The position numbers and the translations under genes were made by a program. A stretch of 64,000 nucleotides of DNA from Amoebophrya sp. A120 (lineage: Eukaryota > Protista > Dinoflagellata). The stretch spans positions 2,378,162 to 2,442,161 of the forward strand of contig CAJINV010000002.1 in NCBI GenBank assembly GCA_905178155.1, written 5' to 3'. The notes below the pieces were generated by a model, which saw nothing but the letters and a program-made list of their open reading frames with translations, did not search any database and was not told where the DNA came from. Shown here piece after piece: positions 3,901 through 55,961 of this stretch. Numbering within the stretch: position 1 is the stretch's first letter; each line of letters begins with the position of its first letter.

Positions 3901-6900
3901 TTCATCAAACCCCGTTATCCGGTAGCAAATGTCCACATCCAAATCCCGCCCAAAGCCGTCGTTCCCCAGCCCCACCCGCGCGAACGCCGACTCGATGGCC
4001 TGCGCGGTGAGTTGTGTGGCCGGAGCGGAGTTCGCGGTGGCACTCCCGTCGATTTTTCGGCTGTACCCGAATAAGGGGTTCGGGTACATAGAATCCGGCG
4101 TGGGAATCAAGCCTGTCAAAGCGTTGCTGCCGCTGAACGTACCGCTTCCGGGAGCGGTTAGTGTACTGGGGAACACCTGACTCGGGTACCAGTCGGTACC
4201 AACCGAAGTTAGTCGCGCTGGCAACCCTTGCACACCGGCGATACTGGGGGGTAAATCCGCGCGAATGGAATCATATGCACTGCAAAAGTATCGTACTAGT
4301 AGTAAGCGCAATACAAATTAACTCAGCATGACAAATGGAATTTGTCATGCTGTTTTGCCTTGTGATGGAGATTTGTAGTGCATGACTGCGATTACTACGA
4401 GTACGATACTTTTGCACAGGATAAGTCCCCGTCGGAGCTGCTGTACGCTTCTTCGGAAAAGGGGCCCGGGAGTTCGTCGAGATCGGCTTTGGAGGTGGAA
4501 ACTGGGGAGAGAAGACCGTCGGTGAAATCGAAATCGGATTTTGAAGCGGTGGAGGATGAGCTAGAGCTTCTGCCTAAGCCTATCTCACTCCCAAATTGCG
4601 TTTGCATCTGCATCTGCAGAAATTGCAAGTACTCCGCGGGTGGTGGCTGGCCTGCAGCTGTCCCTGTTGCACCCACATCACTAGTATCTCCAGATGCGCC
4701 GGCCGACACCGACGCGTCATTTGGTGCTCCTGCACTGCCATCACCATCGCCACTGTTTGTTTTCTCCAGCGTCTCGCTTGCCACCACCGGCTCTTTGTCA
4801 CCGTTGTCATTTTTGGACATCTCCACCCCACAAACCGCCTGACCAATGCGGATTCTAGGACCGCCGGGGTTGTTGAGGGTGCTACTACTTTTCGTGCTGC
4901 CTCTTGATGTGCTCCCACGAAACTCCTGTTGCCTCGCATCAAACATCTGCATCAAAGCTGCTGGCGCGCCAGCAGCTGGATCTTGTTGATTTGTTTCCGG
5001 GAACCCAAAACTCGTTTTCAAAACCGGTTTTGCCGGCTCCAGCTGCAACTATTGAGAGGAAAAATCCTCCCTCCCCATATCGAAAGTGTATGTTTCCGAA
5101 AATTTGTCTTGCTGATTTGAGACCACAAATCACGTCTGTCTTGCAAGAAGACAACTCTACAGGCTCTGCCGCATTATGCAGGCGGTTTGTGATGTTGTTG
5201 GGCCTACAGCATAGACGTTTCTCTTGCTAAGCGCCTAGGCCGAAACCTCTCTACTCAGGCTTCGCAGGAGCTTGTAGTCCTCTACTGCAAGACAAGCCTG
5301 ATTTGTATACGCAAATCCAGCATCAGAAACTTCCGTTTGATATGGGGAGGGGGGATTTTTCCTTGTGATAGCAACCCTAACTTCTTCGACGGAGGTTTTT
5401 TACTTGCTGATCCGTTTTCGTTGTCCCCATTCCCCTTCTCCTGTTGCTCTTGGTAGTGCTGTGACAGAAACTTCTGCATCTCTTCCTGCTTTATTGCCCG
5501 ATCGAAGTTCTTCTCCATAATGGATCGGTGATTCACGTATGCATTGCAAATATGTCAGTCTGGGTCTGGAAGAGAGCGCTTGTTTGGCATGCATGTTTTG
5601 CATGACCCATGATGTCTGTGATGCATGCCCTAGCATCACAGATGTTTTGAGGGCTTCCTCATCCCTAATCCGCATGACAAATGCCCTCGTCTACTCCGCG
5701 TAGCAAGAACAGGACTTCGCTTGCTGCTCATGCAATACAGTTGTTCTTTGGAATCGAAACGCAGCATCACAAGTTGTATCCTTCCAGACCCAGACATATT
5801 TGCAATGCATATCACGTGCGTGCTGTTGATTTGGTTTTCGTTTTGGGTAAAATCAATCATCAGATCCCCCGTGATTATGACCTGCAAAAGTATCGTATTC
5901 GTATAAATGCATTACAAATTTCCTCAGCATGAGAAATAAAATTTGTAATGCGGATCCGGATTTGCCTTGAGAACAAGATTTGTAATGCATGATTGCAATA
6001 CGAGTGCGATACTTTTGCACAGGATAGTGATCTCGTCCGCACGATGTACGTCGTAGGAGCAGAAATCCACGATCGCACGGGGCTGTCGATTTGTAGCACT
6101 GCGCTGCATCGGTTCTCTCTGTACAAAAGCGTCCAACGCAAATTGCACCGCGAGAGAGATTATCAAATGTAAAAATGTCTGGGTCTGGAAAAGTGTAGAC
6201 TTGTCATGCACATTTTCCATGACCCATGAGGTCTGGAATGCGGGACTTAGCATGACAGACTCTGCGGAGTCTCTGTCATGTCTATCCTGCATGAGAAACT
6301 CCCTTCCAACTTGGTCAAAAGTGTACAGCTTTTGGCACTCATGCAACAGAGATTTTTGCATGCTTCAGATTTACCATGACAAGTTGCAATCTTCCAGACA
6401 TCCAGACATTTTTGCAATTCATAGAGATTTTTTCGCAGAAAATCCTCCTGTCGTTCGGTGCGTATCCTGATTAAAAACGTCCCCACACCAGAGTCAAGAT
6501 GGGGACTTTGCAACACAAACCTAGGAGTTTTGGGAATCACGCATGACAAGTTTCAGTCCGTAAGGTAGTGCAAGTTAGCAAGGAAAGCCGCATCACAAAT
6601 CGATCTGCTGATCCTGTTTACAGCATTACAAGTTCCCAAACACGATTGAAAATGCCTGTCATGGGGTTGCGCATCACAACTATTCCTGTCATGGCAAATC
6701 TGCATGACAACTCTGGGGTGGGGACGTTTTTACTCAGGATAGTGCGTCAGCGAGGTTCTGGATTTTCAGGGATAAAGCCCCCGTGAGCCGGTTTTTCCCG
6801 TCGTTTTTTGTGCATTGGTTCAGTTTCCTCTCCAGCGTAATAGCGATTCGGTCAATCGCGGCCTTGCGTTGGTTTTCCAGTCGTTCTTGCTCGGGGGTCA

Positions 6901-9900
6901 GGTAGTTGGTGGGGGTGATATTGTCCTGGTCTGACCCTGCCGGCGTCGCGCTCGTGCTTGTGGTAGGTGGTGGAGGGAAAAATATTTTCAACGACCGGGT
7001 GTCGTGTGGTGTTAGTGAGTCTTGCACTGACTTTGTCAACGCGCTTCAGGAAATAAGTACTTCAGCATGATAAAGGCGAAACCCAACTTCTCTTCTCCGC
7101 CGCACTGAATCTGCAAATTTTTGCAACACATGCAGGTGAAATATTAAACGTGCAACTAGTACTAACCCGCCTGTTGAACAAATTTTCCCATCCCATACAG
7201 GTGTCGTGAAATTCAACAGCAGTGCCTGCGCTGTCACCTGATCGGAGTTCACAGGCATTAACGGGAGCTGCACCGGATACTCCTTCGCTGTTGTTGACTT
7301 TTCTTCTCCTTGTGCACTGGTGTCACTTCCTCCCGCATCCTCTTTTTCACGTCCCAACATCTTCGTCCTCGTGGTCTCCTCTCGCAGATTCCGCAGTGCT
7401 TCGGTGAAGGAAAGGAGCGCTTGCGGTTCTTTATTCGGGTTAATATTTGGTACCGATGGTCGTACTCTTGATGCAACCTGCGAAGCAGTAGAATCTGATG
7501 CACCTTTCATCGATGCAGTATGAATTTCAGAAGCTTTATCCCCCACGCCCGCACTTGCTGGTATCGTGGTTTTCGTCCTCTTCGCAGCCAATTTTGCGCC
7601 TGCCTTCGGATCTGACACAGCAGCGTCCGTTGGTTGTGGTGGTATTTCGTTGCAAACAAACTCCCCTACCGGTGACACGGCGGAAGAATATGTGCTGTCT
7701 ACCGACGTTTTTGAGCTGTTAGTAATCTTCTCTGCCGTTGCGTTAGTACTGTCGGTGTCGCCCGACGCGCTACCACCGGTACTGCTACCCAAAACATCAG
7801 TATTCTGTGGTTTAAAGCTGCTACGGTCGAAAAACTGTTGTCTTTTTCTCACCGCGTTTTCCTCCAATTTTGCGTTTACCAGCGCCGGTTGCATATCAAA
7901 TGTAAAAATGTCTGGGCCTGGAAACTTGTGATGCTGGGTGGCGTCTCATGATGAGGCCACAAGTGCTGGCTCAGCATGACAAGTTTCTGAGCTTCTAGGT
8001 GTTGCCTACTTATTCTGCATGACAAACTGCGTTTCTGCATCACAGAAAAATGGAGCTCCTGGGTAACGTGCATGACAGACTTAAGAGTCATGCCAGACAA
8101 GCATGACAAACATGCACTCTTCCAGACCCAGACATTTTTGCATTTGATATTGCAACTTCTCGAACAACTCCTCATCCTCAGCACTCGCGGCTCCGTCTTG
8201 CGAGGAGTAGCTGAAGTCCATCCTTTCCTCCAGCTCGCAAGCGCTGCAGACCGCCGCGCTCTTCTGCCAACAAACGTTCTTCGCCCGTTCCGGGCGCAGG
8301 CCGCATATGAAATGTAAAAATGTCTGGGTCTGGAAGATTGCAACTTGTCATGCTAAATTTTTTTTTTTTTTGCTAGGCTTCTCGCGTGTCGATTTGAAAT
8401 TCTTTTGATTTTTCTTTTGGTTTTCTTTTGATTTTTCTTTTGATTTTTCTTTTCATTTTTCTTTTGATTTTTCTTTTGATTTTTCTCTTGATTTTTCTCT
8501 TGATTTTTCTTTTAATTTTTCTTTTGATTTTTCTTTTTGTTGATATTTTCTTTTGATTTTTTGGTATTTCTTTTCGTTTTTCCTTTGTCTCGACACACAA
8601 AAAGCGGTGGGCGATTCACGAAGAAGTGCGCGGGTGTGCTCGGCGTTCCCGTGGCCTTAGGCCCTACCTTTTGGATAAAAGCTGCCGCTCCTCCTCCCCA
8701 CGTCTCTTCCTTTCGCCATTGCCATCACTCCATTCATGGCCGACAGTTCCACTTCTCGCACGTCATCTGCATCCCTCCACAGAGATTTGTGAATCCTCTT
8801 CGGCCTGCGCAGTAGCAACGAAAAAGCAGTGTGCCAACCTGGCGGAGATTTACGCACTGACGCCTGCCCCCACATCTTGTTCTTGGAAGGATGTCCAATA
8901 TTTACACTTACATCTTGATATCATGGAAAACATAGAGAAATCAACTATTTATTTCTATGTTGGTAAAAATGAAAGCGGAATAGAATAGAAAGCAAACTAT
9001 ACTACTTTGGTGCTGCAGGCAACTAATAGTTCTGAAGACAGGGCAGAAAAAAGCTCTTCTGTAGTGCAAGGAGGTCAGTACTAAGTAACTTTCCTACAAA
9101 ATCCTTGGAAATTCAACTACTCAGGACTATATACGACTCATTTTTTTTGCTCAACAAGTACTACCTTTTCACTACTACCACCTCCTTTCTCCATCTCAGC
9201 CTGTCCCTGTTTTTATTTCTTTTTGAATGGAAAGTTACGAGCAACAGGCAAAAAAACGCCTGTATTTAGGACGAACAGCAAACTACGAACCTGTCTGCGA
9301 AGTTACCAGGTGCTACGATGACGAATTCACGAATGACGACTTATTTTCTTTCGCGCGACGATTAGGCTGAGGAATGGGTCTGCTTAAAAATACCAGGTCA
9401 CTGTCCATGTGTTTACTAGTACCAGGGGACCAGGCAGCCACGTAGCTCATTAGGTACAAGGTTACTCTATGCCGCTGATTGGTACAGTTCTATTCTAAAT
9501 CTTCAGCGATGAGCAAACGCTCCACCTAGGTCTGGCTTTATGGGGTTCCCTTTATATTGGTGCACGTTGCGGGCTTCGCAGCAGGGACCTGTTGTTTTAT
9601 GCATTTTTGATTTTCATTGAGTTGTTTGCTCGAGGATGTTATCTGACTTAGCATCATGATCTCAACTACCATCTATATGTTCATCATACACAAGCAGGCA
9701 CTAACAAAAAACACGAACCTCCGATCTGCAAATCTATTGCCATCAAATAGCTCCATAGTCATTATTTTTATATACCTGGTATCTTCCTTTCTTCACTTTC
9801 CCCCTCCTCAGCCCAGCTTTTCGCACGATGTAGTACTGGTCGTTTTTCTTTTTCTTTTGGGATCTCGTCGCTTCATAAACAAAAAGGAGAGGATTTGATT

Positions 9901-12900
9901 TGCAGAGAACCTGGGGAATTTAATTTTTTGTGACTCAAGGCATCTAGTGGCGCGTCAATCAAGATACTTCATCGGAATGGCATCAGTAAATACCTTCAAA
10001 TTGCTCATTCTATTTAGTTTCTTATACACATTGTCGATCTTGGTGTGCTGCTTTGGAATTCGTTCCATTGTGTGCCCTATTTCATCGACACATCCCTTCA
10101 CCCTATCTCGAAAGAACTCATGCGTTAACTTTGCCTCTTCGTCCACTATAAGACGCATGATTTTCTGCGGCTGTTTTAGTAAGCTGCGCCCGAACTTGTC
10201 ATGCTAAATCTGCAGCATGCAAAAATCTGTGTTGCATGATTACCAAAAGTCGCCCAATTTTGACCAAGTCGGGAGGTAGTTTCTCATGCAGGATAGGCAT
10301 TAGAAAGCTCTCGCAGAATCTGTCATGCTAGCTCCGGCATTCCAGACCTCATGGGTCATGGAAAAACTGCATGACAAATCGCGCATTCTTCCAGACCCAG
10401 ACATTTTTACATTTGATACCGCAGTAGTCAAACGCAAACAGGTCGAAGTCGTTGGAGTCGTAGGGGTTGCAACCGGAGCTGACGTCGTCGAGGGTGTGGA
10501 AATACTCGTCGCTGCATATGCAATACAAATTTCCCGTACATGTACAAAATGCATCACAAATTTCACCAACCTAGAAGAAGTTACTTGTCATGCTGAAGAG
10601 GTTTGAAGGAAAAGTTTGTCATGCGGAAGCCACATTTGTACGTCGTGTACAGGAAATTTACTGTGGATACTGCAGGCGAGATCTTCCTCCGGTTTGTTGA
10701 AATACCGGTACACAATGCTGTCGTACATGAAACTGCACACGTCGTAGCGTTATGCAGTGCAAATCTGTCTGGGTTTGGAATCCTGTGATGCTGATTTGCT
10801 GCTGATTGCAACGCTTGCCACGGCAGCCAAGCATGACAAGTTTTTGAAACGCTTCCTGATGTCTAGCACGCATTACAAATTGCGTTTTCGCATGGAAAAG
10901 GAAGTGGCTCTTCTGCTGCTCACGCAACACAGATTTTGATTTTCTAGGAATGCTGCAAAATACGCATATACAAGTTCAAGTTCCACTTTTCCAGACCCCG
11001 ACATATTTGCAGTTGATAAGCGTAGGCAATCCCGGCCCCAGTTCGAGCACTGCACCGACTTGGTGTCGCTGGCGATGCAGCCCTGTCCGCACCGGCCCAT
11101 ACAGGAGTTGTCGGAGAGAATCGTGTCGATTGCGAAATCCTGCACGTCCACGTCTTCGGGAGCAAGAAACTTTGTAGTCATCATGGCCCTTCTGCTCTCC
11201 TCCTGTTGCAAAAGAACCACGCCTTCAAGTTGATCACCACGACCTCCTGGCGCTCTTGTTGTATTAGCCGACGAGGACGAGACGCTGCTATCAAGTGTAA
11301 AAATGTCTGGGTCTGGAAGATTCTGACACTTGTCATGCACGTTTTGCATGAGCCATGATGTCTGTAATGCATACCCTGGCAATACAGATTTCTTCAGGGC
11401 TTCTTGATGCCTATTCCGCATGACAAACGCCTTCTCAGCGTAGCAAAAATTGCATTCCCTTTGGTACTCATGCAATACAGGTTTTTTTGGAATCCAACTG
11501 CAGCATCACAAGTTGCAACCTTCCAGACCCAGACACTTTTACAGTTGATAGCTACTTGTCGTCGTAGAATTGTTCGCACTGTCGTCTTATCAAATGCAAA
11601 AATGTCTGGGTCTGGAAGAATTTGTCGTGCAGATTGTACATGACATGTGACGTCTGTAATGCATAACCTCGCATAACAGATTTTTAGCGGGCTTTCTGAT
11701 GCCTATCCCGCATGAGAAGTACCCTCTCCATGTAGCACAAACTGGACCCCTCTTGCTGGTCATGCAATACAGATTTTTTTAGAATGCAGAGACAGCATCA
11801 CAAGTTGCAATCTTCCAGACCCAGACATTTTTGCATTTGATACGTCTGTGTCTATCTCCGCGCCCGCATCCGCCTCCGTCGGTGCCGGGGTTGTGATGCT
11901 GCCATTATCGTCATGTTCTTGGCGCGGCGGGGGAAAAAACTTCTTCGCGACTTGCACCGAGTTCACGGGCACCTCTTCCAGGCCCCAGCACTCTATCCTG
12001 AGAAAAAAGTGTTACAGTTTGTTACAGACTCTGATGGAAGACAGGCAAGACAGACGACCTTTGTCATGCAGGAAATGCTTGCCAGCTTCATTTCATTCGT
12101 GTTTTCCCTTATAGTCTGCGCATCACAGGTTTTCTTTGCCATGCCGGCGACTTTGTGATGGAGAAAGAACTCCAACAAATGTGTAACTGTAACACTTTCA
12201 TTTTCCTGTGATACACTCTCCGGCCCGCATGGTGACCTCGTAGCAGATTTCCGGGCAAGAGCGTCGAGATGAAGCAGCAGCGTCTTCTTGCTTTGCATCG
12301 GAAAGATCCTCCGTCGTGGTTCCACTTGGCGTGGAGGTCGTTTTCCCGAGTTTTCGCCCCGTTTCGATGCACGGCCCGTTGAGTTCGCCCAGGTGGGGCA
12401 GGCCCAACTCCGGCCCGGTGAATTGGACCACGTACTCCCGGTCATTCTCGTAAAAGTCCGTGAAAGGTTCTAACCGCTCGATGCTGCACACGGAGTTGGT
12501 GTTGGTATGTGATGCAGTGGTTCCATAATTATTTTGATCACCATCCCCAGATGAAAACTCGTTTTCTGAAGAGGAAGAACCCCCAGATTTGTTGTAGCTT
12601 GCCGGGATCAGAATCGACTCTGACGCAGAAGTACCGGAGGTGGTGGAGAAGAAACCACTAGGTGCTTGTTGCGCATTTGAACTTCTTCTTGATCTTCGAA
12701 ACCCGTCGAACAAGAACCCGCTGCTTCTGGTTTTTCTACTTCTCTTGTTCGAGTACGTGTGATCACCTCCAGCACCCCCATCAGCGAAGCTTCGTGCTTG
12801 CTGCAAAAGGCTCGTCTGTTCACCGTTCTGTTGTCCGCCTGCTTCTTCCGTGGCTACATCGTCGTTTTCTAACTCTTCTGCTGCTGGGTATGCGTTGGCA

Positions 12901-25100: not shown

Positions 25101-28100
25101 AAACTTGATGTCCAAATTGTCCCGGATGTTCACCTATGCATTGCAAATATGTCTGGGTCTGGAAACTTGTAATGCTAAAAAGGAATGATAGACGCACTGT
25201 AATACGCACCTATGCATGACAAATTTTTTGGCTGCCATGTGTTACGTATTTCGCATGGCAAACTGCGTTTTTGCATGACACGTAAGAGGACCTTTTTGTG
25301 CCCATGCAACACAGATTCTCGAGTCATGCCAGACAAGCATGACAAACTTGCAATCTTCCAGTCTCAGACATATTTGCAATCCGTATCAACACCTGCTCCC
25401 TCCGGTCGTGTTCCGACTGCGGAAAGACACCGCCCTCCACCTTTTATCCCAAGAAAAAAGTGTTAATACAGTTACACTCTACTAATGGAAGACAAGCAAC
25501 ACAGACAACCTCTGTCATGCAGGAAATGCATGCCAGCCTCAGTTCATTCGTGTTTTCCCTTATACTCTGCGCATCACAGCTTTTCTTTGCCATGTCGAGC
25601 AACTTTGTGATGCAGAAACTCGAACAGATGTGTAACCGTAACACTTTTTTCCTGTGATACCTTTGCGTGATCCGACACTGCCAAAAAAGTGAACCACGCG
25701 GCCTCCTCGAGGTACAAAATATCTTGTGCAAAAGTATCGTACTCGTATTGTAATCATGCATTACAAATCTTTTCGTCAAGGTAAATCAGCATTACAAATT
25801 TTATGTCTCATGCTGAGGAAATTTGTAATGCATTTATACGAGTACGATACTTTTGCACTGCATATAAAAACCAAAACAGCAAGTAGTGGTTCGCTGCACG
25901 GTTTTTCTGTCCCAGGAAAAAACTGTTTCACTGTGATGGCTTTGCAAGATCTGCATCACAAGTTTGCTACACATGACACTGAAAATTTGTCATGCGGGCT
26001 TCCAAAGGGAAAACACGCTTGAAAAATCCAATGTCTTGCAGGTGTAGCAAGACAAATAGTTCTGTGTTCCATTTTCTGCATCACAAGTTCACAGTGAAAC
26101 AGTTTTTTCTTGCGATATTTTCGCCAACGAAAGCAAAGAAGTCCGGGAGAGTTGAATCGCCGGGAGACGGCAGGACGGTGCTGCCGCTGCGAGGTTCTTT
26201 TCACCAGGATTTTTCCCAACACCCTGCCCGTGTAGTTGTTCCCCCTCTACAAGAACTTCTTCCGCAGCGAGATAGACGCAGTCCAGGGCTCTCTGCAAAT
26301 GCTTCAACACCAGATCCTCGGCCGTTTTTCCGTTGGTAAGAATCAAACTCCTCTCCCGCTCGGAGGTGAAGCTGATCTCCGTACTGTTCTGAAGATTTTT
26401 TCCGTGGTTTGTCGTGCTGTTTTCATCATCGGTTAGAGCCGATTGTCGCACGGATTTCTCTAGTTGTACACTGTCACCGCTAATAGAAGACGATGAGGAG
26501 AGCGAAGCCGTCGTGGTTGCACTAGTCGTACTTGATGTGGACGAAAATTCAACATTTTCGTCCAGAAACAATTTTCCACTTTCCACCACTCCGATAGCGT
26601 GATTGAGGTAAAATTTCTCATGGTCACGCGCCTTTTTCTGCAGAAGTGCCAGCTCCTGAACTTCATCTTCCGTGAGTGTCGAAGTTAGTACTTGCGACGT
26701 TTCTCTTGTTTGTGTAGCTGCAGGATCAACATCAGAATTCTCCTGCTCCCCAGTGGCCGCGCCAGCGTTAATATTTCTGCTTTTCATCATTTTCGCGGCG
26801 TTTTCTACCTCGAAATCGTGCAAATTCCGGAAGACGTGACAGGCGAACTGCAGGACATCGGCATTGTAGAGCTTATTCGCCTCTCCCGCTTTCAGCCATG
26901 ACTGCATCTCCCATCTGTCGTCGGTTACACGCTCGCGATGGTAGTTGAAATAGATCGGGGAGTATGCACTACAAATTTACCACGACACACGAAGAACACG
27001 TAGCAGGACATCCATCTTCACAAATTTCGCTAATAACGCAGTACAGAACCGAAGTTGTTTATTGGCACGCTCAATAACAGGTAGCAGAACAAGAGTGCTG
27101 TCATGCTTGTTGGTCAGCATCTGTACTTCGTGTGGTGCGGTAGTAAATTTCCTCTCGGTAAAAAGCCACTCGCGTCTACCAAATGCAATTCTGTATTCAT
27201 GCTTGGTTCCGTATCGTTGTTCTGCTCCTCTTTATGATCTTGGGAAGGAGAAGTACTTGTAGACGCAGAACCTGTTGCATCTGCCTCGTCAACACCGCCT
27301 GCTGACATCAACTTCTCAGAAGTCGCATTTGTGATCTTATCCCTCGTCTTCTTCGTGATCCGCTGCCAGCTTTTCCTATGAACTGCAAAAGCATCGTACT
27401 CGTATAAATGCATTACAAATTAGCCCAGCATTACAAATTGAATTTGTATTGCTGATTTACCCTGAGAAAGAGATTTGTAATGCATAAATGCAGTTACTAC
27501 GAGTACGATACTTTTGCACAGGATATTTCCGGTGCACCGCAGCAGTAGCGAGAAACATGGTGTAAAGATCGTCGCAAACGTTGTTCTTCACCATCATGTA
27601 TCAAGTGCAAAAGTGTCCGGGTCTGGAAAAGTGTAAACTTGTGATGCAGATTTTCCATGACCCATGAGGTCTGGAATACGGGACTTAGCATGACAGACTC
27701 AGGTGCGAGGTCTCTGCCATGCCTATCCTGCATGAGAAAGTTCCTTCCATTTTGGTCAAAAGTGGACAGGTTTTGGCACTCATGCAACACAGATTTTTGC
27801 ATGCTTCAGATTTACCATGAGAAGTTGCCACCTTCCAGACCCAGACATTTTTGCATTTGATATCATGGAAAAGTCTTCAATCTCCACAAAATCCCGCAGG
27901 TCCCGCTCATTCCAGGGCAAGAGGGCGTTTTCATCTACTGCAAAGGGATCATATGGAGGTGTAGGTGGAGTAGCACCAGCTACCTCAGAACCCCCTAATT
28001 CTAATTCATTCTTCCTGCTTGTGGTCGTAATTCTTGTTGATGTTGCTGCACCTCCTGCTGCGGAGTTGTGGTTTCGCACTGGTCTCGCTCCCAAGGTGGG

Positions 28101-28193: not shown

Positions 28194-28361
28194 GGTGTTC
28201 ACTTGATGCTAGCTTGTTACTTCTCGCTAGTCTGACCTTAAATTCGTGTCCAAATAAAGAATGCTGTAAGTAACGACATACAGGACCACGGCTTTTGCAA
28301 AAACATGTATTCCACACGGCACAGCGTCGGCTTCGAATCTCGAGCGCGACCGCAAAAGACC

Positions 28362-36151: not shown

Positions 36152-36611
36152 ACGACCGTCCAAGGCATAAACGTGGAAAGAACTTCATTTCCTCTCTTCA
36201 AAGCAAACCAACACGCCGGAAAACCTTGCGGCTTCTCCTTCTCAGCAGCTTCGGCTTCCTGAGACTAAAGAACGCAAGGAAATCATTTTTTCCTGCGAAG
36301 GCTCAATTTTATATTTATTTTCTGGTACTTACAACTGAAGGCGATCTGTACTCGCCTCACGAATCGCTTTCCGGTTCTTTTCTTTTGTCGTTTTCTACTC
36401 TACCGCACCGTTCCGCGCGGTCGCTTGATTTATTCTCGTCGACGTAGTTGATTTTCGGTCTACATCAGAAATCTAGGTGAAACGACAGCACACGCATAAT
36501 TTTTTAGTACAATACTTTGTTTATAAAATTACAAAACTCTATACCTAATTCAAATATATTCCAAGATGTGCTTCCACAGAGCAAATTTGCTCCGCTGCGG
36601 GGCATTCTGTA

Positions 36612-39600
36612 TCATTGGTCATACATAAAAGATTTAAGTAAACTTGATACATAAAAACAGCTGGGCGTAGGTAGGGGGGAACAGAAGCTTCCAAATCCTT
36701 CTGTCATAGTCACTCATGTTTGTTGAAGAATAAATCGATCATGCTTACACAGGGCCCGGGGAAGGTTCTTTGGAGAGGGTTTTACTCCCCTTCCGACCCC
36801 ACAGTGCATACCCCGCACTTTCGGCGACGTCGACGAAGAGGCCAGGGTGACCCAACAACGTCTTCAGCCGGTTGTACATTTCATTGTCTTATCCATTGCA
36901 ACTTTGTCTGGGTCTGGAAGAAGGCGAACTAGTGATGTTGTAGAATCAAGGTCATACAAATGTAGAATCAACGCGAAGGTGATGTTGTAGTTGCGAATCA
37001 AGGTCATACAAAAATCTGTGTTGCATGACTTGCAAATGAAAAACGTGCCTGTTTATGGCCATGAAGATAGGGTATCTTTCATGCAGAAGAAGCATCGCCA
37101 AGGGGCTGCAGAACCTGTGAAGATGCTAGGCGGCCGTGCATTCCAGAGTTGCTGGAGCCTGGAAAAACTGCAAACAAATCTCCGAAAAATCATCCAGACC
37201 CAGATACAGTTGCATTTGATACATCCGAGTCGCAGCGCAGCAGCAGGAGCGTGATGAGATCCGGATCGTGGCCGGGTTCGATCATTATGCATTGCAAATC
37301 TCGAACTGGGTCTGGAGACTTGTGACGTGGAGCTCCTGTGAATGCCTTGTTGACGGTCGCTGTGAGGACAGCCAAGCATGACAAGCTTGCAGAGCGCTCT
37401 ACTTTTTTATGGTGCCTAGTGCACATGACAAAGTGCGTCATTTCATTTGCATGACACGAAAAGAAAAAGTCGCCCTTTATCATAATTAAGTAGCCATGCA
37501 ATACTTGCAGATTTTCCAAGAGTTGCATGACAAGCTCCTCTTTTCCAGACCCAGAAATATTTTCAGTTGATAATCGTCAGGTACATCTTGCGACCGGCGA
37601 AGTACCAGTCCGAGGTATCCCGCGTAAAAACGTCCCCGCCCCAGAGTTGTCATGCGGATTTGCAAGAATGACAAGAACATTTACATTTGTGATGCGCAAC
37701 ATGGTCCCCATAATAATTAGGCACTTCCAGTCGTGTTTTGGAATTTGTAATGCAGTAAACAGGATAAACAGCTGGCTTTGTATTGCGGCTCTCCTTGCTA
37801 GTACCCTGCGCTACACTACGGACTGCAATTTGTCATGCGTGACTCCCAAAACTTTTGGGTGTGCGCTACAAAGTCCCCATCTTGAATCTGGTGGTGTGGG
37901 GATGTTTTTACTCAGGGTACCTGGGGTCTCCAGACTTCCCGCCGGCGTATTCCATTGTCGCGACGGGGCGGCTATGAACTGCAAATATGCATGGGTCTGG
38001 AGGAATGTTGAAAGACTTGTCATCCAATTCATGAACCATCCACATGGTCTGGAATGCACACAGTAGCATCACAGATTTTGCGAGACCAGACCGTCTTGAT
38101 ACTGATTTCGCATGAAAATTTCGGCTTTTGCGTAGCAATAAACGGGCAACTACTCTTGGGGTTTATGCAAGACAGATTTCGATTTTTTGTCGTCCAGGGT
38201 GTTGCATGAGAAGCTGCATCCTTCCAGACCCAGACCACATGTTTGCAATGCATAACGGCCAATCCGGTCTTCCACGTGCAGCACGGGGCGATGCAGCGCG
38301 CTAAACCAGTACGTTCCTTCACGCTGTTTCTGGAAAATGCGGTACACCCAGCTCTGCGGGTCTTCCGTTTCCGACTGCAGCTGTCCGTGCGATTTTCCGT
38401 ACCGATACCAAAACCAGCTGGCGGGGACCGACAGTCCCTCTGGCTTCGCCCATATGCATTGCAAATATGTCTGGGTCGGTAAGAGTCCAAGGTTTGTCAT
38501 GCTCGGCCAGCACGTCTCTCATGGGCGCTCCATTTTTCTGTCATAGAGAAAAACAGTTTGCCATGCAGACTGGGCAACCACACCTAGCAGCTAAAAAATT
38601 TGGCATGCTGGGCCGCCAATTGAGACATCCTCATGATTGTGCCACGACCCGCATCACAAGTTAGTTCCTACAGACCCAGACATATTGCATGCAATGCATA
38701 ACCCATTGCAGATAGCCAAAGCGGTACGCCTGTTTCAAGTCGTCAAACGATGCGCTCAGGTCTTCCCGCGAGGTCCGCTCCTGTCCCTTGAAGCTGGGCA
38801 CACTGGCGTAAAACTGCACGACGTTTCCGCGCCACCCCATGTTCCGGAGTGCACCTCTGACGACCACATCGGCGACCTTATCCAAATTTTGCTATGAGGG
38901 TGCACACAGCTCCCCCTTCCCCTCACTTGTACTGCAAAATCCTAAACATCTATTCGCTGCCTGTGCCTTGCTTGTTTGAATAAAAATAAATATAGCACCG
39001 CTCGCATAACAAATTCTGGATGAAGAGCCAAACAGTGTACATAGTATAACACTCGGCGCGTCAACTTGTCATGCGCACCAGCATACACGGCCTGTGCTGG
39101 TGTTTGACTTTGATTTTGAATTGCTATTCATGCCATACTACGTCAAATGAAGGGGACGAGGGGGAGTCCTTGCGCGGTCGGATACCTTGCCGCCCTGCGC
39201 CAGAAGCTTTTTCTGCGTGTAGACGAACGGTGGCAGTTCGTGATCCCCGTCCATCATGTACGCACGGGCTGGATGTCTCTGCAGAAACAGCCCGACGAAC
39301 GTCAACCCTTTCAAGAAATCCCCCGCAATCGTCAGCCGCTGCTTCATATGCATTGCAAACATGTCTGGGTCTGGAACACTGCAACTTGTCAACTTCATGC
39401 TCCTGGATGATGCAAAAATCTGCGGCGCATGACTACCAAAAGTTGTTCACTTTTGCACAAACTGAAGGGGAGCGTCTCACGCAGGATAGGCATGATAGAG
39501 ATCTCACAGAATCTTGTCACTCTAGGTCCCGCATTCGAGCCCTCATGGGAGGTCATGGAAAACCTGCATAAACAAACCTTGGCGTTGTCTTCCAGAAGAC

Positions 39601-47180: not shown

Positions 47181-47981
47181 TTCTTGAACGTACACAGTTA
47201 GTTGCAGATGTGAAAATCGTAAATTTTCCTCCCCGAAGTAAAATCGTTTTTTTTTTGTCAATTCTTCCTCCACACAGAAAGAGCGCAACCGGAGTCACGC
47301 TAAATGTGAGGTAGAAGAAAAAAAACGTAACCTGGTAGAAATTTGTGGAAATTTTGCTCGTCGTCGTATGTGCGAAAGGGAAAGAATCTGTGGTTAAATA
47401 TATTTGAAAGTTTGACGACAATTGTGCCCACGACAATAATGTTCTATCGATGTCCTTCTATTCCAGTCTACGACGTGCAGTGGTGCAGCGATAGAGCAAA
47501 TGCAAGAGCCAAAACGGCCGCCAGTGGAAAGCTTTTTGCCCATCGTCCGTGGCTGACGTTGACTATGAACATGAATTCAGAATTCCCACGAAGCGACGAA
47601 ATAAAAGCTTTCCAGACGAGCCTGCGACGATACCGATCTTCTACTGATTTTCAAGACGAGGAAGATGTTGACGAAGCGGTGAGGTGGAGCACATTTGAGA
47701 ACTTTGTTTACTGCGATGACTGTGAAGAAGCCGAAGCCCGCTGTTCTACTTCCAAACATAACGAGCTCTTCCTAATATGACGAGATGCAGTGTGGCTGCG
47801 ACGCCATGCACTTGTAGTACGACAAGGACGAAAATAATGATAATCCGCAGTGATTCTGTTTCTGCGGCTGAACACCAGCACTTTTAGTGAACTTCATACC
47901 GGCCAACAAAAATCGTGACCGGGACCGACCAAAGGTACAACCCGACAACACGCCTGTGGTGCTCGTGGTGCACCGTCGTCG

Positions 47982-50900
47982 TCAGTCGCCTCTGCCTAAA
48001 TATTGAATGGTGAGCGTGGCAGTGGGCCTTACTGCGGTGTAAACAGAAGATGTTGAATTTGAATTCTCATTAGCTTTCGACATAACAATTTTCGCCCTAT
48101 TACTCAAAAGTCTCTGCTGCTGAAACGCAGGATCTAGCAGCGACGCTGAACTTTGGAGTGGTGCGGGGTTTTGTCCTTCTGGGCGCTCTGGCTGCACCAG
48201 CGCACTCCCTGCATGATTTCTTGTCATGCTCATGCCTGCATGATTATGCGCGGCCAAGCGCCCACCAGCTGCTCCGCTGGGTTTCATGGTACTGTTGGAA
48301 GTGATCTTCATGGTCGTGTTTTTCATCATTCCGAAACCGCCCCCAGAACCTCGATTCGATGACGATGCCGAGGCCCTGCTCTGCGACAAAGCGTTCTCCA
48401 AATTGCCCACGTCCATCCGGGTATGCATTTCAAAAAACACTGTGGTGTACTGTGGTGCCCTCAAGCAGACCTGCGTCTGCCGACGTGCTAGTTGTTGACA
48501 TCCCGTGCTGATAGATTTAGACTGTGGTCTCTTTCTATATGCAACAAACTTTGACAAGAGCTAATACATGCTTCCTTCATTCTTTATTCGCCTTATTTTC
48601 ATTTTCATCTATTCTTTCGTGAATGCTACACCGCGAGAGCAAAACACTTAATTGATTGCCCCAGTGACAACATTACACAGCATTTTTTTCAGTTCCCGCT
48701 GATACTCTCGCGGATCCACTGTCAGCCCGAGCCGTTGTCCCCACTGCTATCGCACGAAAAAACCGTTTCACTGTGATGATTTTGCAAGATCTGCATAACA
48801 AGTTTGTTACACATGACAAAGAAAACTTGGCATGCGTGCTTCCTAAAGGAAAACACAGCTGAAAATCCAATGTCTTGCATGTGTAGCACGACAAACACAT
48901 TTGCGTTCCGTTCTATGCATCACAAGTTTACAGTGAAAAAGCTTTTTCTTGCGATAACTGCCGCTCATAGGTCAACGCCCGGCACTCCTTTTCGGCCAGG
49001 CTGTTGCAGTTTATGACTTGCTCATGTGCGTACGATCTCATGTTACGAATACAAATGGAGACTTGTGAGGCAAAGACTGAATGATCTGGCCGCCTCTCAC
49101 AGGACTTCTACACATGACAAGTTCTCGAGTCGCAAACCGCATGGGAATCGTCCGGCGAAACTTGTATTGCAAAAAGCGGAACCCCTGTGTGTCTGTCATG
49201 CTGCTCACGCAAGACATCAAAATCCAGATTCTATTGGAACAGCTGTTGAGATTGTAACTACACTTGAGCAGGTGATACAGTCCTGAAACAGTTTTTGGTA
49301 ATCCTGGAATTCCTGCAGCTTCTTCGAAAAAGTTGCGGAGAGTTGCGGCTCGTCACCCTCACTGCCAGAACGACCCTCGGAGTGACTATGTTGAAAAGGC
49401 TGTTGGTCTTCTTCACTGCTATTCCCCCCAAAAAGTACTTCCCCAACGTTGAGGTTTTCTCCCTTATCGTCGCTACCGTGACTGCCCCCCGAGGCGTCGC
49501 ACTTGATCTTTCGCAACACCGAGCTGGGCTGCAGGTACTGCGTCATGGAGGGATCCAGGGCGCGAAAGAAATCGTTCAGAAATTTGTTCCTGTCCTGCGC
49601 GACGCGTCGCGCCGAACTGGTGCCGTCGGCCTTCGCAGCGGTTGTTTCCGTCCTTTCCAACAGGAAACAAAACTCCTGGACCAGCTCTTCCCTATCGAAT
49701 TCAAATATGTCTGGGTCTGGAAGAGCGCAGACATTTGTGATGCAGTTCCGCCTAGCCCAGAACGTCTGGCATGCAAGCCCTAGGATCACAAATTCCGAGC
49801 AGGTATCCCAATGCCTAATCCGCTTGCCAAATGCCCCCTTTCTTCAACAGGAAATGGGACCTTTTGGTGACCATGCATGACAGATGTTGTCATGATGTAG
49901 AATTTGCATCACAAATTCGAATCCATCCCGACCACCCATATATATTTGCAATGCATACTCCCACAACTCGGCTGCTTCCGATTGTTCCCGCGTGGACACG
50001 AACAGAATTGCTTTTTCGACGTCCTGTAGATTCCGCAAAAAGATCTTCACGGCCTCTTTTGCGAGCCCCGCTTTGGACAACAAAAATACCAACGCGTCGT
50101 AGAGCTCGTGTTCCTTGCACAGCCCGATGGCGTGCTCAATGTAGGTCAAATTGGTCTGGTGATCCTGCAAGAAATCCAGAATTGCCTCCGAACTTGGATC
50201 CTCCTCGTAGTCTTCAGGAATAGCATTTTTGCTACTTCTTTTCCTGCTTCTATCGCTCGTATTCGCTGCGTTGCGCGAGCCACGGACGGGCTCAGGAACA
50301 GAATTATGCGTAACAGCTACTTGTTGCTCGCCAATTGTTCCCTTCTCTGGCAATTCATTATTCGCATTCTTAAACGCCGCCACGCTACCACTGGAAACGA
50401 CAACATCATGATCCTGCCCGATGCTTATTTTGCTGTCTTCCTCTATTTTCCGCGAAGGGGGGCGATTTTCATCCTCGGCAATTTCAATTTTCTTCTCCCT
50501 TATTGCCAGTTGTTTTTTCCGGCTTACACTCGCGTCGGCGACTAGCAACCGAAAGTGTTCGTCGTGGTATTCGCGAATGGCCGCGAAGTCCTTGACCTAT
50601 GGAATGCAAAAGCATCGCACTCGAACTCGTATAGATGCATTAGCATTACAAATTTCCTCAGCATTAGAAATAAAATTTGTAATGCGGATTCACCTCAAGA
50701 AAAAGATGCGTAATGCATGACTGCAATTACTACGAGTACGAAACTTTTGCAGTTCATATGACCCGCATCTGGTTGAAATACCGCAGTAAGAATTGGTTGA
50801 ATCCGTGTTTTTCTTCCTGATGTAGAATTCCACCGCGTCTGCTGCTCCCAGTTTCATCTACTGTCTTGGCGTCCTCCACCAGCCTCCTCAACCTCTCCAC

Positions 50901-53900
50901 GGTGTCTACCACCGGGAATAAACAAGCGGCACTGTCCACGAGAAACCCGACGCACAAGTCCGCGTCGAGCGTCAGCAGCGCTCGCAGATTCTCGAACACA
51001 AATCGGGTACACAGAGAAGTGGTTGTTGTTGTAGACCACGCCCTCGCCGCGCCATCCACGACACCAGCAGATGTTGTTGACCCGCCTTTGGTCAGCCGCC
51101 GGAGTAGCGAGAACACCCCGGTGACGGCCTGGTACTGCAACAGAACCTCCAGGGCGGGTTGAAACTGCTGTTTCTTCTCGTAAAGCAGCGCCAAACACTC
51201 CGCGGTCACCTGCGTGAAGTGCTGTGAGAAAATGTTGTCGCTTGTTGATGTTGCAGCTGTAGTACCAGAAACTGTAGTACTTTGAGTCTTGTCATGTGCT
51301 CCTGTTTTGTTCCCACGACCGCTCTGGTCCGGCTGCTTCTGCTGCTTATGCCGTAATAAACTAGCACTGCCGTGCTGCTCTAACTGGTTCTGCAGTAATA
51401 GCTGCAGCAAGTCGGTAGAATAAAGCTCGTCCACTTGCTCAACATTTTCTGCGCCATTCGGACCGCTTGCAACACCGACTTTTGACGCGCCGTTGGACTT
51501 AACCGTCAATCCCCAGGTAGAGAGCACCTCCAGCAGGGCCTTCGGGTAGGAAATCAGTCTTTGTAACACCATGTCGCACATGACCCGGTCCAGCTTCTCT
51601 GGATTGATCAAGGCTGCAACGCGGTGGATGCAGTTTCGCTCGAGGAAAATTTCCGTAATGGCTTGCTCCCAATTCTCCTCCGCACTAGCGGCCTCCTCGT
51701 AAATGTTTTGCGCGGTTGAAGATTCTGCTTCCTCTTCAAGATTTGTATTCACTGCCTGATTCAGATTCGACGTCGTGGTGCACAACATGACCAGCTGCTG
51801 CGCCCGTTCTTCGTTTTCGTTGGTGCCGCACCCGGCGAGGACCTGCTTCACCGCCTGGATTAGAACGCGGGACAGGCTCGGGTGAGATTCCTTCGCGAGC
51901 AGCAAGATCGCTTCCTCGTATCGGTTCTGCGCTTTTTCGCACAAGAAAAGCGCGTCTTCGAGTACGTCCCGGCGATGCACCCGGATGATGTCAGTCCCGC
52001 TTGTTCTGCTCGTCGTTTCAAAAGCAGTTGATGTTCTTTTCGATGATAAACCACCAAGAGTTGTCACCAGATCTGCAGCTTCTGTGTCGGTCACAAAAAT
52101 CACGCCGCAGGAAAACTCCTGCAGATGTGATTCCGGTGCGTCGTGGTGAATTATATTCGCAGCAGCTGCTCCCGTCTGGTCGTTCATCGTTCCATCAAAC
52201 ACCTGCTCGGATTCGTTCACGCAATACAGCACATTCACGTGGTGGCTCGTGCTCCCAGCAGAGTATTTTTTCGCGAGGTAGTTGTTCTGCTGCAACATCA
52301 TTTCCCTTGACCTTAACTCGGCGTCGCTGTGTCTCTCCTTGCAGAACAGCTTATCGGTGTGCAAGATACTCCGCGTTCGCAGGCTTACTAAATGATGGTT
52401 GACTTGATGCTCCTGGATTATAAACAGCGGGGAGCAGTCCTCGACGAGTGTTGTTCCAGCTCCTGCTGCTGCTTTTTGCGATGATCGCGTCGCCGAAACT
52501 GCTGGCTTATGCACGACTTGGCGTCCTCGTGAAGATGAAAAGGGACTGCTGCTGCTTTCTTCCACTTCCATCGAGCTTGCAGGAAACACTCCACGGTCCG
52601 CCTCCGCGCCATTCGTCTCGGCACGAGGTGGTGGACCACCCCTCACGGCACCAGTGGAGTCGCCCAGAATCTTGACGCAAGGCCGCTGCCACGGTGGGGG
52701 CAGAAGCGCAGTTGTTGTCCTCGTGTCTTTGAATTGCGGGTCCTCTACATCTGTTTTTCTGGTACTAGAACCGACTCCGTAAACGACTTCATCCGCCGTC
52801 AAAACCAGCAAATCGCTCCGGACCCGCGGATCCGGCGCCAGCCCGACGATCTTGCTAGAGTAGAAAGGCAACGACGGAGAGGACAACACTGAAGAGGACA
52901 TCACACACTGTGCCAAATAATTCGCCGTCAGACTCATGTTCACAACCACCTCGCAGAAGTAGCTCACCGCTCCCCCGGACGACGACCCGTTCTGCCCGTT
53001 CAGATGTATTACAGTGAAAAATGCCCCGACCCCCAGAGTTGCAAGCATTTGTGATGCGAAGTTTCCAAATGAAAACTTTTTGTCATGCATGAAAGGAATA
53101 CGAATCTTTGTGATGCAGAGTCTAGGCGCATATAGCATTGCTTGCATGACAAGCGCCGCTCTTGCTGGGATCTTTTGCAATACAAATGTTCGCTATTCAC
53201 GATTGGGAATCTGTGATGCAGCTGGATGCAAGAGGGCGCATGTTTCACCTGGAAAGGTTTGCAATACAAATGCTCTCAAGTTCGGGGATGGGGGCATTTT
53301 TCATTGTAATAAGATGCGGGTTCTGTTCGCGGATTTTCGCCACTTTCAACTCCAAATTTTCGCCAATGCACAAAGTCCACCCGAAATCCAGCCAGAGGAG
53401 CACGGTGGGCGGGGGGGTTGATGGTGGAGGTGCTCCTGTTGGGACCTGTTGTGTAGATGAAGAGCTTGTTCCCCCCGGAACTGGTCCTGCTCCTGCTCCT
53501 CCTGTCAATGGGATAAACGCGATCTTCTGCATGGTCTTCGTGTGCAGCATATGCAATGCAAAAGCATCGTACTCGTGTAATATTAAACGCATTACAAATT
53601 ATATCCTCAGCATGAGAAAGTAAATTTGTAGTGCTGATTTACCTCAAGAAAAAAATTTGCAATGCATGATTGCAATACGAGTACGATACTTTTGCACAGG
53701 ATCCAGCAGTTTCACGCCCTTCTCCGTGGTCCAGGCCGCGATCTGCAGTTGGCCCCACTTGCAACTGCTTTGCCGTGCGTAGCTATTGAACACCGTTTTG
53801 GTGGTTTCTTGGTCGAACGAATTATGTCGGGCGGGGGTTGAATTTGGTTTTGGATTGTCCACATTGATCATATTATGCTTTTTGTTCATCTTACTGTAGA

Positions 53901-55961
53901 TCGTATCCAACACCTCCACCGTCGGATTCCGCACGGAGTGTTTCTTGCACAGCAAAACCTCGACTTTCGATTTGGTTCCGGTGGTCAAAACAAACCTGGG
54001 AAAAGCCCGGTCAATCATCGGGTCGGCGGCGCAGGAGAGGCACAGCCCAATCACGTCAATTTTCCAGAGCTGAATCGAGGGTTGCTCCACGTTCAAAACG
54101 ATGCACTCGTACAGCCCGGCGACAATCAGAAACTTGTGGTTCACGGAGAGGCAGGAAACCTCCTGCTCCAGGATCCTTCGAGAAAGGGAGGATGAGCTCG
54201 TCGTCGTAGAAGGGGTGGTTATCGTTATGGTTTTGATATTATGGTTGTGATCACCTTTATTCTGATGCATGTTGCTGTCCAGCACCGGTGACGCCCCCGC
54301 CGCGGGAGATGAAGAAGCATCACCATAGACAGCAGCTCCTTCGTGTACTAGTTCCCCTGTAGTTCCTGTCACCGACCCTACTAGACCGCCACGCGGAGAC
54401 GAGGCGGTTGACGCGGACACGACGCTCGCAGCAGTAGAGGCCGCGTCGTGCTGCGAGAGTACTTCCCCTTGTGCTGATATAATGTGGTGTCCACGTGCAA
54501 TAGAAACAATTGATGTCCCTGTAGTATTTATCCCGACCCCTTGCTCCGACGCGGTTGTGGTTTTCCAAATCGAATCCACGAAGTCGGACGGCACCTATCC
54601 TGAGTAAAAACGTACCCACCCCAGAGTTGTCATGCAGATTTGCCATGACAGGAACATTTGTGATGCGCAACCCCATGAGAGGCATTTCCAATCGTGTTTT
54701 GGAATTTGTGATGCTGTAAACAGGATCAGCAGGTCGATTTGTGACGCGGCTTTCCTTGCTAACTTGCACTACCTTACGGACTGAAACTTGTCATGCGTGA
54801 CTCACAAAACTCCTAGGTTTGTGTTGCAAAATCTCCATCCTGACTCTGGTGTGGGTACGTTTTTACTCAGGATAGCACCGGCGTTTGGTTTTGCGAGGAA
54901 CTGGAACTCTGCTGGGACGCGGTTTCGGCGTTATAAGCGCCCTATCCTGTGTAAAAACGTCCCCACCCCAGAGTTGTCATGCAAATCTGCATGCTGAAAA
55001 TGTTTCTCATGCGGAGCCACATGAGAAGCATTTTCCAGGTGTGTTCTGGAATTTGTCATGCTCCAATCGGCATGATATAGTAGATCTGTGATGCTGCTGA
55101 GCTAGCTCAAACAGCACTACACTACGAGCCCAAATTTGTCATGCAAAACGGCCAAAACTTGTGGATTTGTCTAGCCGAGTCCCGATCTTGACTATGGGGT
55201 GGGGACGTTTTTACATAGGATACGCCCTGCTGCTGGTTCTTATTTGGGACGTCTTGCAGCACATGATCAGCTGGAGGCGTGGAAGACGACTCCAGGTTAG
55301 CAGTGCCCAGCCTTGTCTGGCGCTCTACTTGATCCTCGTCCTGCGCAAGCACTACATTGCCTGCCAGGTCACCACCACTCCCGACGACCCCAGCACTCCC
55401 AACCGTTGGGAAAAAAACTTGGTGCTCCCAGAGCATGCGAAACCGGGAGTGGGTTAGCAAGTGCTTCACGTTTTTGCTCGTGCGCTGGGAAGTTTGCGAA
55501 GTAGATGCGGCTGTTGTAGTAGTGGAGGTGGGAACAGCAGCTGCATTACTGGTGATTGTCGGTGTAATATTTTTATCCCGCTCCAAAACCACCGGACTTG
55601 CGCCCGGAATGAGCGACGTGTCTTCAAACAGCTGCACATGCCCCGAAGCGCGACCGACCGCGACGAAGGCTTTACCTCCCAGGCTCACGCAGGAAACGTA
55701 ATCAGGGCTGTTGAACAAAGGTCGCGGAGAAGTTGTGAGGTTTGTTCCCTGCCGATGCTCCTCCCGCTGCTGTTGTTGTGTTTCCGCAGCTGTAGGGCTG
55801 CTGGAAGCTGCGCCAGACGTGGCAAGTCGTATCTCGTTATCGGCATCAGTATCGTCTACACTTGGTCTCGCAATGTCCTTGATGCGCAGGTAATCCACAC
55901 GAGGCAGCGGGTCTTTCTCCCCCGCCTGGCTGTGTGCAGGGGGGGGTCGGGCGACGGACAT
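47982..55961 (-). CDS. VPS41: Vacuolar protein sorting 41 homologue (HOPS subunit; WD40 plus clathrin heavy-chain repeat)
   Basis: VSCVSLGGKAFVAVGRASGHVQLF, WGQLQIAAWTTEKGVKLLD, RRDVLEDALFL...YEEAILL, ECLALLYEKKQQFQPAL and YIEHAIGLCKEHELYDALVFLLSKAG...DVEKAILF...ELWE match Vps41 architecture. Eight introners. Last exon uncertain. Confidence 0.8.
48748..48956. mobile_element. Family C introner
   Basis: C-type TIR, opposite orientation to 1694-1908; TSD actgc. Confidence 0.9.
49012..49277. mobile_element. Family K introner
   Basis: Homologous to 31610-31871; TSD cagtt/cagtc. Confidence 0.85.
49693..49957. mobile_element. Family A introner
   Basis: A-type TIR; TSD ttccc/ctccc. Confidence 0.85.
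50598..50758. mobile_element. Family B introner
   Basis: B-type TIR; TSD tgacc. Confidence 0.9.
53007..53311. mobile_element. Family L introner
   Basis: tattacagtgaaaaatgcccc...ggggcatttttcattgtaata; TSD agatg. Confidence 0.9.
53550..53703. mobile_element. Family B introner
   Basis: B-type TIR; right end ATC instead of ATA; TSD cagca. Confidence 0.88.
54596..54874. mobile_element. Family E introner (reverse complement of 6463-6741)
   Basis: E-type TIR; TSD gcacc. Confidence 0.9.
54943..55222. mobile_element. Family E introner
   Basis: E-type TIR; TSD cgccc. Confidence 0.9.

Follow-up and report, generated by a model that had tools for sequence, protein, structure and literature searches.

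The window analysed here is a 64,000-nt stretch of the dinoflagellate Amoebophrya sp. A120 (GCA_905178155.1, contig CAJINV010000002.1, positions 2,378,162 to 2,442,161). Its protein-coding genes are interrupted by inverted-repeat elements that open with TAT, close with ATA and are missing from RNA whichever way round they sit. Judged by sequence, they are most likely the introner elements published for A120 and are likely derived from miniature inverted-repeat transposable elements (MITEs). The text of that report (Farhat et al. 2021, PMC7789003) describes closely similar features: a TAT-7 nt-AAA inverted repeat, direct repeats of 3-5 nt, a length of about 240 nt, division into families, RNA-supported non-canonical introns and co-oriented gene blocks. 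There, an A120 introner is defined by a terminal inverted repeat of 8-20+ nt, and 29,850 repeated introns make up 17% of the assembly, with borders variable or unknown and the splicing mechanism left open. Both these elements and introners that work in either orientation are already known, and the observation is not new in kind. What is added here to the A120 introners is a fixed 1/4 cut register, a 50:50 orientation and polar end variants. Literature searches and the text and supplementary text of PMC7789003, figures excluded, yielded no statement on element orientation or a fixed 1/4 register in Amoebophrya. From a real feature of a known system, the analysis derives an exact and testable splice rule for introns whose mechanism is unsolved.

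Host genes and inserted elements

The host genes all lie on the minus strand, as the earlier note on this DNA had stated. Restored open reading frames (ORFs), Pfam matches, a GT-AG intron and a codon model back this assignment. When each element is excised together with 5 nt, the ORFs recovered measure 1482 aa (7 elements), 938 aa (9), 1164 aa (5) and 1798 aa (8); excision with +0, +3, +4 or +6 nt yields no ORF longer than 942 aa. Three Pfam matches above cut-off (rhomboid, hydrolase and Vps41) were obtained from 57 scanned pieces, six of which were plus-strand controls. All three fall in minus-strand exons, and 52 of the 57 pieces had no match at E 0.01. A leave-one-out codon model assigned 57 of the 64 curated elements to minus-strand hosts and none to plus, with 7 uncalled. 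The recognizable genes are a Vps41-like TPR gene (48016-56003), a rhomboid gene without listed homologue (56543-58612) and a serine aminopeptidase S33-like gene (19900-20691). The apparent stop of the 1482-aa ORF sits within a B-type element that ends at about 987. The mate of that end likely lies just upstream of the window start, and the interior (1-987) has 10-13-bp tandem repeats. At 61000-62200 the sequence is 72% G+C, and each strand has open frames of about 300 aa, none with a Pfam match.

The detector found 53 non-overlapping TAT...ATA inverted-repeat elements in the window, against 2 and 4 raw matches in two Markov shuffles. The curated set of 64 consists of these 53, minus one (36310), plus 12 added by hand. 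It covers 16,236 bp with a median length of 257 nt, which is too short for encoding a transposase. Their inverted repeats measure about 25 nt, with a 5-bp direct repeat on either side of the element. TAT followed by 7 nt and AAA, the introner signature, occurs at 58 left ends and 51 right ends of the 64. For a wider count, 136 metagenome loci (411 kb) of a related assembly were found with one repeat-end motif. They hold 327 unique elements; the host strand was called for 210, and the 117 uncalled elements were dropped. A perfect 5-nt direct repeat flanks 40 of 67 window elements and 263 of the 327 from the metagenome loci, and the composition of the direct repeat equals background at all five positions. 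Families account for 54 of the 64 window elements (10 families) and for 250 of 274 once the metagenome loci are included (15 families). No real exon homology was found between the window and the metagenome loci, and no empty-site comparison follows from them. The match of locus L121 to the window was rejected as a homologous site because it reflects two adjacent elements by coincidence.

Five same-family pairs in opposite orientation had been singled out before, and all of them are present. They align as reverse complements at 74-94% identity (identical columns: E 262/279, B 131/150, C 173/215, D 245/331, G 186/209). Same-strand alignments score much lower than the reverse-complement ones (122 vs 490 for E, 70 vs 326 for G). 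The ten copies all start with TAT, end with ATA and have 17-24 of 25 terminal bases complementary; each has a perfect 5-bp flanking repeat except the B copy at 4274. Table 1 gives their coordinates with those of the other features.

Some elements depart from the common form. The interior of the element at 8306-10418 is a tandem array with degenerate sequence; RNA joins 8300 to 10419, and its ends thus function 2 kb apart. A 1002-nt element at 62684-63685 has good ends and an expanded interior. The element at 31975-32280 is flanked by exonic duplications of about 90 and 49 nt (31884-32557).

Table 1. Elements, introns and restored reading frames of the window. Joints are written as the two flanking positions.
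Feature	Position	Strand	Ends, repeat or register	Context and evidence
Family E element	6463..6741		repeat GTGCG	predicted intron 6459-6742 on minus; outside RNA-compared stretches
Family E element, opposite orientation	54596..54874			within 1798-aa restored ORF; DNA contig enters 28 nt; no RNA joint among those listed
Family B element	4274..4423		direct repeats diverged	outside RNA-compared stretches
Family B element, opposite orientation	23669..23818			absent from RNA together with 5 nt (X5 contig)
Family C element	1694..1908			outside RNA-compared stretches
Family C element, opposite orientation	48748..48956			RNA removal by contig-length arithmetic, X3; 88-nt gap matched exactly
Family D element	5050..5370			outside RNA-compared stretches
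Family D element, opposite orientation	32598..32919			within 1164-aa restored ORF; outside RNA-compared stretches
Family G element	18282..18490			RNA joint 18274/18489 in 4/4 runs
Family G element, opposite orientation	30836..31044			outside RNA-compared stretches
2113-nt element	8306..10418		intact ends, CCGCA repeats	one intron; X3 loose end at 10419 = window 8271-8300
Four mixed-orientation elements (14648, 14959, 15519, 15753)	14648..15966	-		removed in one transcript, register 0-1 at 15519; equal depth 206/129/55 in X3/X4/X5
D-family copy	17198..17523		register 1-5 from mismatched repeat	joint 17193/17525
Decayed element	19804..20015		weak inverted repeat; cut N/TAT...ATA-N4, register 1-2	joint 19799/20017
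Largest family, reverse	22848..23150		register 0-3, mirror register 4 excluded	joint 22842/23151
Largest family, forward	24836..25097		register 0-1, one-sided	piece stops at 24830
Largest family, reverse	36890..37221		register exactly 1, one-sided	piece stops at 36885
Decayed element	48422..48704		direct repeats lost	skipped by RNA; whole in a DNA contig
Largest family, forward	49693..49957		register 1-5	pieces stop at 49959, 49688; no sense-strand end pairing predicted
Canonical GT-AG intron	19600..19763	-	starts GTAT	joint 19597/19762; shares transcript with element introns
Restored 1482-aa ORF	912..7045	-		first copies of C, B, D, E
Restored 938-aa ORF	22169..26976	-		nine elements, two families in both orientations
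Restored 1798-aa ORF	48651..56003	-		Vps41-like TPR region, eight elements

Removal from RNA in both orientations

The RNA evidence comes from runs X3-X6, one sample, whose contigs were compared with the window stretches 8620-28340 and 36500-56400. Two features led to their treatment as RNA: a GT-AG intron is skipped, and X3 leaves 43804-47123 uncovered where the DNA run X1 has 26-32x. In 8620-28340, which holds 27 curated elements, 12 are skipped in listed joints, one of these (18775) as part of a longer 517-nt intron, 1 by adjoining pieces and 7 by contig arithmetic (gaps of 681 and 179 nt matched exactly); 1 is backed by a contig end only, and 6 are absent from the matches listed. Among the 20 elements of 36500-56400, pieces show the skipping of 2 and arithmetic (88 nt) that of another 2; 2 have one-sided evidence, and 14 are absent from the matches listed. 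No retained element copy occurs among the listed joints and pieces of either stretch. For the ten paired copies, removal is direct at 18282 and 23669 and follows from arithmetic at 48748; those at 1694, 4274, 5050, 6463, 30836 and 32598 lie outside the compared stretches. The ends of the RNA-supported introns are non-canonical: 1 of 16 element joints is readable as GT-AG in some register.

RNA contigs omit the element and 5 nt in both orientations of four families, which bears out the proposal that element orientation does not matter for removal. Copies lying either way round are removed in the largest family (22257, 24836, 49693 vs 22848), the second-largest (25135 vs 14648, 17981), family B (23191, 50598 vs 15519, 23669, 25720) and the C/G families (15753, 18282, 25445 vs 17689, 25908, 48748). 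In family E a joint shows removal for one orientation (14959), while for the other the evidence is a contig end (54943); in family D removal was seen in one orientation only (17198). The nine mixed-orientation elements of the 938-aa ORF are all missing from a single 4352-nt RNA contig. A 7638-nt X3 contig has an ambiguous end and so is not counted as removal of the first copies (1694-7894). The joint 11829/25134 was set aside because its contig runs from element to element and belongs to another locus.

The raw RNA runs X9 and X11 gave 11 and 210 reads, which match only repeat ends. The reads of X11, from another sample, match only E-family repeat ends (54835-54874 and 55116-55165), and 163 of them pass from 54835-54874 into a different flank; an E-like end is thus carried unspliced by a transcript from another locus or from a related strain. 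The 5' part of a 517-nt intron at 18512-19028 is a whole young element (18775-19025). Its final joint fits N-TAT...ATA-N4 via an outer TAT two bases upstream, and either nested two-step splicing or a co-opted end is possible.

Orientation relative to transcription is balanced, with no strong bias in the 250 family elements of the window and the metagenome loci; this count stands in for the genome-wide one that the earlier note had called for. In the window, 37 of 54 elements (10 families) lie in the majority orientation of their family, vs 35.7 expected at 50:50. The pooled figure is 146 of 250 (15 families) vs 145 expected. It excludes a 65:35 bias (P=0.0015 for 146 or fewer), and 60:40 remains compatible (p=0.09). 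That one orientation is spliced less well or retained, the symmetry being a small-sample effect, is hard to credit, and we consider it very unlikely. The contigs carry no measure of splicing efficiency, and the joints and pieces seen are the listed ones only. Some classes of Polarella glacialis introners that form introns either way show a bias (10.1101/2020.10.14.339549), and the largest family stands at 9:2 in the window alone (p=0.065). However, that family reaches 43:34 with the metagenome loci added and the overall count fits 50:50. Mixed orientations are also removed together within single contigs, at depths of 206 and 22, and in-frame read-through would be possible in only 4 of the 64 elements.

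The elements are present in DNA. In run X1, where unique sequence has a depth of about 26-32x, eight listed contigs extend 24-127 nt into element ends unbranched at 23-31x. The listed contigs of this run contain four whole elements, two of which (48422, 49012) are skipped in RNA. Since the elements are kept unbroken in DNA contigs, removal at the DNA level is unlikely, with the qualification that this evidence is a single run, that contigs drop rare variants and that a stage-specific event could therefore escape it. These contigs contradict the suggestion that double-stranded DNA is what is recognized. In programmed excision like that of ciliate internal eliminated sequences, the segment is absent from expressed DNA; here X1 contains it, unbranched. 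Excision from double-stranded DNA, programmed or transposase-driven, with mRNA copied from a clean template, would suit the transposon-like ends and the exact restoration of the pre-insertion length, and a staggered double-strand cut could yield a strand-specific junction. Against it stand the X1 contigs, the removal of decayed elements that a transposase could hardly recognize, and polar end variants (described below) that fit a reading of RNA. We regard this explanation as extremely improbable.

The position of the cut and the end signals

The register is the count of upstream-repeat bases inside the intron, and it is readable only where the 5-bp direct repeats mismatch. Two-sided joints allow registers 0-1 (15519), 1-5 (17198, 19070, 49693), 0-3 (19277, 22848) and 1-2 (19804). 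One-sided ends allow 1-5 (23191), 0-1 (24836, 48422), exactly 1 (36890) and at least 1 (26963). Only register 1 fits every informative junction, and 16 of 16 element-type joints are compatible with it (17 were examined, the 17th being the canonical intron). The one-sided piece ends at 23347, 24830, 48416, 36885 and 26958 agree. The last of these lies 4 nt beyond the ATA of a decayed element outside the catalogue, which extends from 26963 upward, and is consistent with register 1. The intron is thus likely N-TAT...ATA-NNNN, cut 1 nt before the element and 4 nt after it, on the assumption of one shared register across about 12 junctions, five of them one-sided.

In the largest family, register 1 holds forward (49693 with 24836) and in reverse (36890; 22848 excludes 4), so the cut does not flip with the element. 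Outside the repeat, its distance is 1 nt on the 5' side but 4 nt on the 3' side, and the process is therefore not symmetric. The position of the cut likely follows the direction of transcription. Two points limit this account of the cut: 50598 can alternatively be read as GT-AG in register 4, and the window genes all lie on one strand, where RNA cannot separate transcript polarity from chromosome-strand polarity. The nine A120-predominant splice classes in Table S4 of PMC7789003 all have T in second position, which agrees with register 1, though aligner preferences could contribute. The A25-predominant classes in the same table are all TT-NN, with repeats that start TTA. A25 may possibly use the same code in another register, with U at +2, A at +3 and a free 3' end.

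The ends were compared in 257 sense-oriented elements (209 from metagenome loci and 48 from the window) found with a relaxed symmetric detector. U+2 is present in 255 and A-7 is kept in 255. Intron length is evenly distributed modulo 3 (97/74/86). GT-AG ends occur in 6 of 257, which is background. A C excess at +5 (186 vs 162, p=0.03) fails correction for 25 tests, and no drift of mismatched repeats toward GT-AG was seen (7:5, 2:5, 0:2). The 5' consensus of U12 introns is RTATCCTT. The elements match it at +2 to +4 and have C at +5 in 186 of 257, but +1 is unconstrained and 129 of 257 have A at +6. Minor small nuclear RNAs (snRNAs) are reported absent from A25 and A120 in the text of PMC7789003.

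The terminal 25 nt are near-identical at the 5' and 3' ends, i.e. on both strands. The variants of the terminal triplets are nevertheless polar: U+4>C occurs 8 times and its mirror A-7>G once, and U+2>C never occurs vs 4 cases of A-5>G (Fisher p=0.007, weakened by being a post hoc test on 13 variants). The two contrasts run opposite ways, which argues against a strand mutation bias. The excess of U+4>C, which breaks a pair, over A-7>G, which keeps a wobble, concerns the third position of the repeat and fits a base-specific reading of A-7. The contrast between U+2>C and A-5>G fits spliceosome and pairing models alike.

Candidate splicing machineries

From symmetric removal it had been concluded that the process is not spliceosomal and that the stem or double-stranded DNA is read. 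This inference fails, because with inverted repeats each strand carries identical end signals, and a polar signal inside the repeats survives inversion. What symmetric removal does imply is that no polar signal of the element interior is required. In addition, introners with spliceosomal sites that work in either orientation have been published. In 10.1101/2020.10.14.339549, classes 6, 8 and 10 of P. glacialis are described as biased in orientation, and several classes, together with Aureococcus anophagefferens introners, form introns either way. Like the window elements, these are target-site-duplicating transposons that become introns in both orientations and are cut inside the duplication. 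Unlike them, they have G[TCA] and AG sites, particular target sequences and orientation bias; the window elements have a free target, background terminal dinucleotides and no bias, and lack canonical sites.

The explanation we favour, at about even odds, is removal of the elements by a relaxed major spliceosome with a 3' cut at fixed distance. A DNA transposase would insert the element at random sites, in either direction, with a 5-bp duplication. The 5' site would be N-U-A, in which U and A are the +2/+3 bases that do not vary in ordinary donors; whichever of the two repeats is transcribed first would provide them. The 3' site would be set by distance, 4 nt beyond AUA, with A-7 as the likely branch adenosine and a T-run at about -15 to -20 as a possible U2AF site. 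The repeat hairpin is likely an aid in bringing the ends together and is likely not the ruler. Orientation independence would then be a consequence of repeat symmetry and not of symmetric chemistry. The canonical intron beside the elements also starts GTAT, matching the element donor at +2 to +4, which supports the spliceosome indirectly. A near-complete spliceosome does so too: the text of PMC7789003 reports 83 of 89 spliceosomal proteins, U1 proteins and, in A120, U2/U4/U5/U6.

Precedents for parts of this scheme exist. The non-canonical introners of Fritillaria borealis need the U2 spliceosome, in a modified form, and set a precedent for a relaxed one (10.1101/2025.08.15.670264, PMC13326754). 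They differ in having preferred AG-AC/AT ends, as those reports describe them; the ends of the window elements fall in the duplication and are free. A fixed spacing from branch to acceptor is described in PMC2483917 for Yarrowia, Giardia and Trichomonas, and A-7 would lie between -6 in Yarrowia and -8 in Trichomonas. These species retain ACTAAC and a terminal AG, neither of which is present in the window elements.

Several observations weigh against the spliceosome. G+1 (79/257, p=0.37) and AG (20/257, p=0.54) are at exon background, and inspection of the 3' ends found no WCTRAY-like branch consensus; free G+1 and AG without a branch consensus differ greatly from what a U2 spliceosome normally acts on. 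The text of PMC7789003 also reports that U1 snRNA was found in neither A25 nor A120. Three of 257 elements lack U+2 or A+3. One of them, at 53550-53703, is a B-family copy in the Vps41-like ORF whose transcript-5' end is GAT, without U+2, and no listed RNA contig spans it; the similar exceptions are in loci L123 (301-562) and L019 (4549-4793). Of the 26 RNA-supported elements that were folded, 18 have at least one of the three TAT:ATA pairs with a predicted pairing above 0.2. The arms of decayed elements still form a duplex (-10 to -19 kcal/mol, vs -8 for the canonical intron). Finally, a self-complementary triplet with unequal spacers parallels the code of Euglena nonconventional introns, for which the authors favour non-spliceosomal factors.

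The Euglena introns (PMC12501133; PMC11282704) are described as having self-complementary end triplets, a longer spacer on the 3' side, terminal pairing, direct repeats and a proposed MITE origin, all of which the window elements share. They differ in their triplets (CDG/CHG vs TAT/ATA), in their spacers (3 and 5-6 vs 1 and 4) and in an exon-start purine rule that the window elements do not follow: at 7 of 16 RNA joints the exon begins with a pyrimidine, and it begins with a purine in 153 of 257 elements (p=0.12). Circular excision is reported for Euglena in these papers.

A Euglena-like second RNA machine would read the paired UAU:AUA base of the hairpin, cut at fixed spacers of 1 and 4 nt and release a circle, and we hold it to be possible rather than probable. 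The background terminal dinucleotides and the missing U1 snRNA would be expected of it, and a terminal stem is predicted for most elements, whichever strand is folded. N1-TAT/ATA-N4 parallels N3-CDG/CHG-N5-6, which was demonstrated by knock-ins in Euglena (PMC12501133), and A-5>G, which keeps a wobble, is found 4 times where U+2>C is never found. The 8:1 ratio of U+4>C, with its broken pair, to A-7>G speaks against it, as do the match of the motif to donor +2 to +4 of the neighbouring canonical intron and the absence of both the Euglena motif and its exon-start purine rule. Folding also bears on it. Predicted TAT:ATA pairing is at most 0.2 in 8 of the 26 elements, and 4 of the 26 have fewer than three predicted end-to-end pairs and are still removed; removal is exact at 18516, 19804, 48422 and 49693 despite no predicted end pairing. 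The stem recognition proposed in the earlier note is thus a mere possibility, held here at the RNA level. A bulge-helix-bulge geometry, as cut by tRNA endonuclease, was rejected, since no flank-to-flank helix above chance was found at six offsets.

If real, a single transcript-polar register that leaves the terminal dinucleotides free would make clear how the elements came to invade coding sequence at random positions and either way round. It would provide an annotation rule for junctions that direct repeats make ambiguous and account for the scattered NT-NN splice classes in Table S4 of PMC7789003. It would also name the positions by which a relaxed spliceosome can be told apart from a Euglena-like machine, namely U+2, A+3, A-7 and the spacers of 1 and 4. 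More tentatively, and with some doubt, N-UAU...AUA-N4 may be a second splicing code in Amoebophrya, served by a non-spliceosomal pairing-and-ruler machine that arose independently of that of Euglena. In that case any insertion, at any site and in either direction, would be silent at once, and tens of thousands of introns would follow a convergent second route to mRNA splicing.

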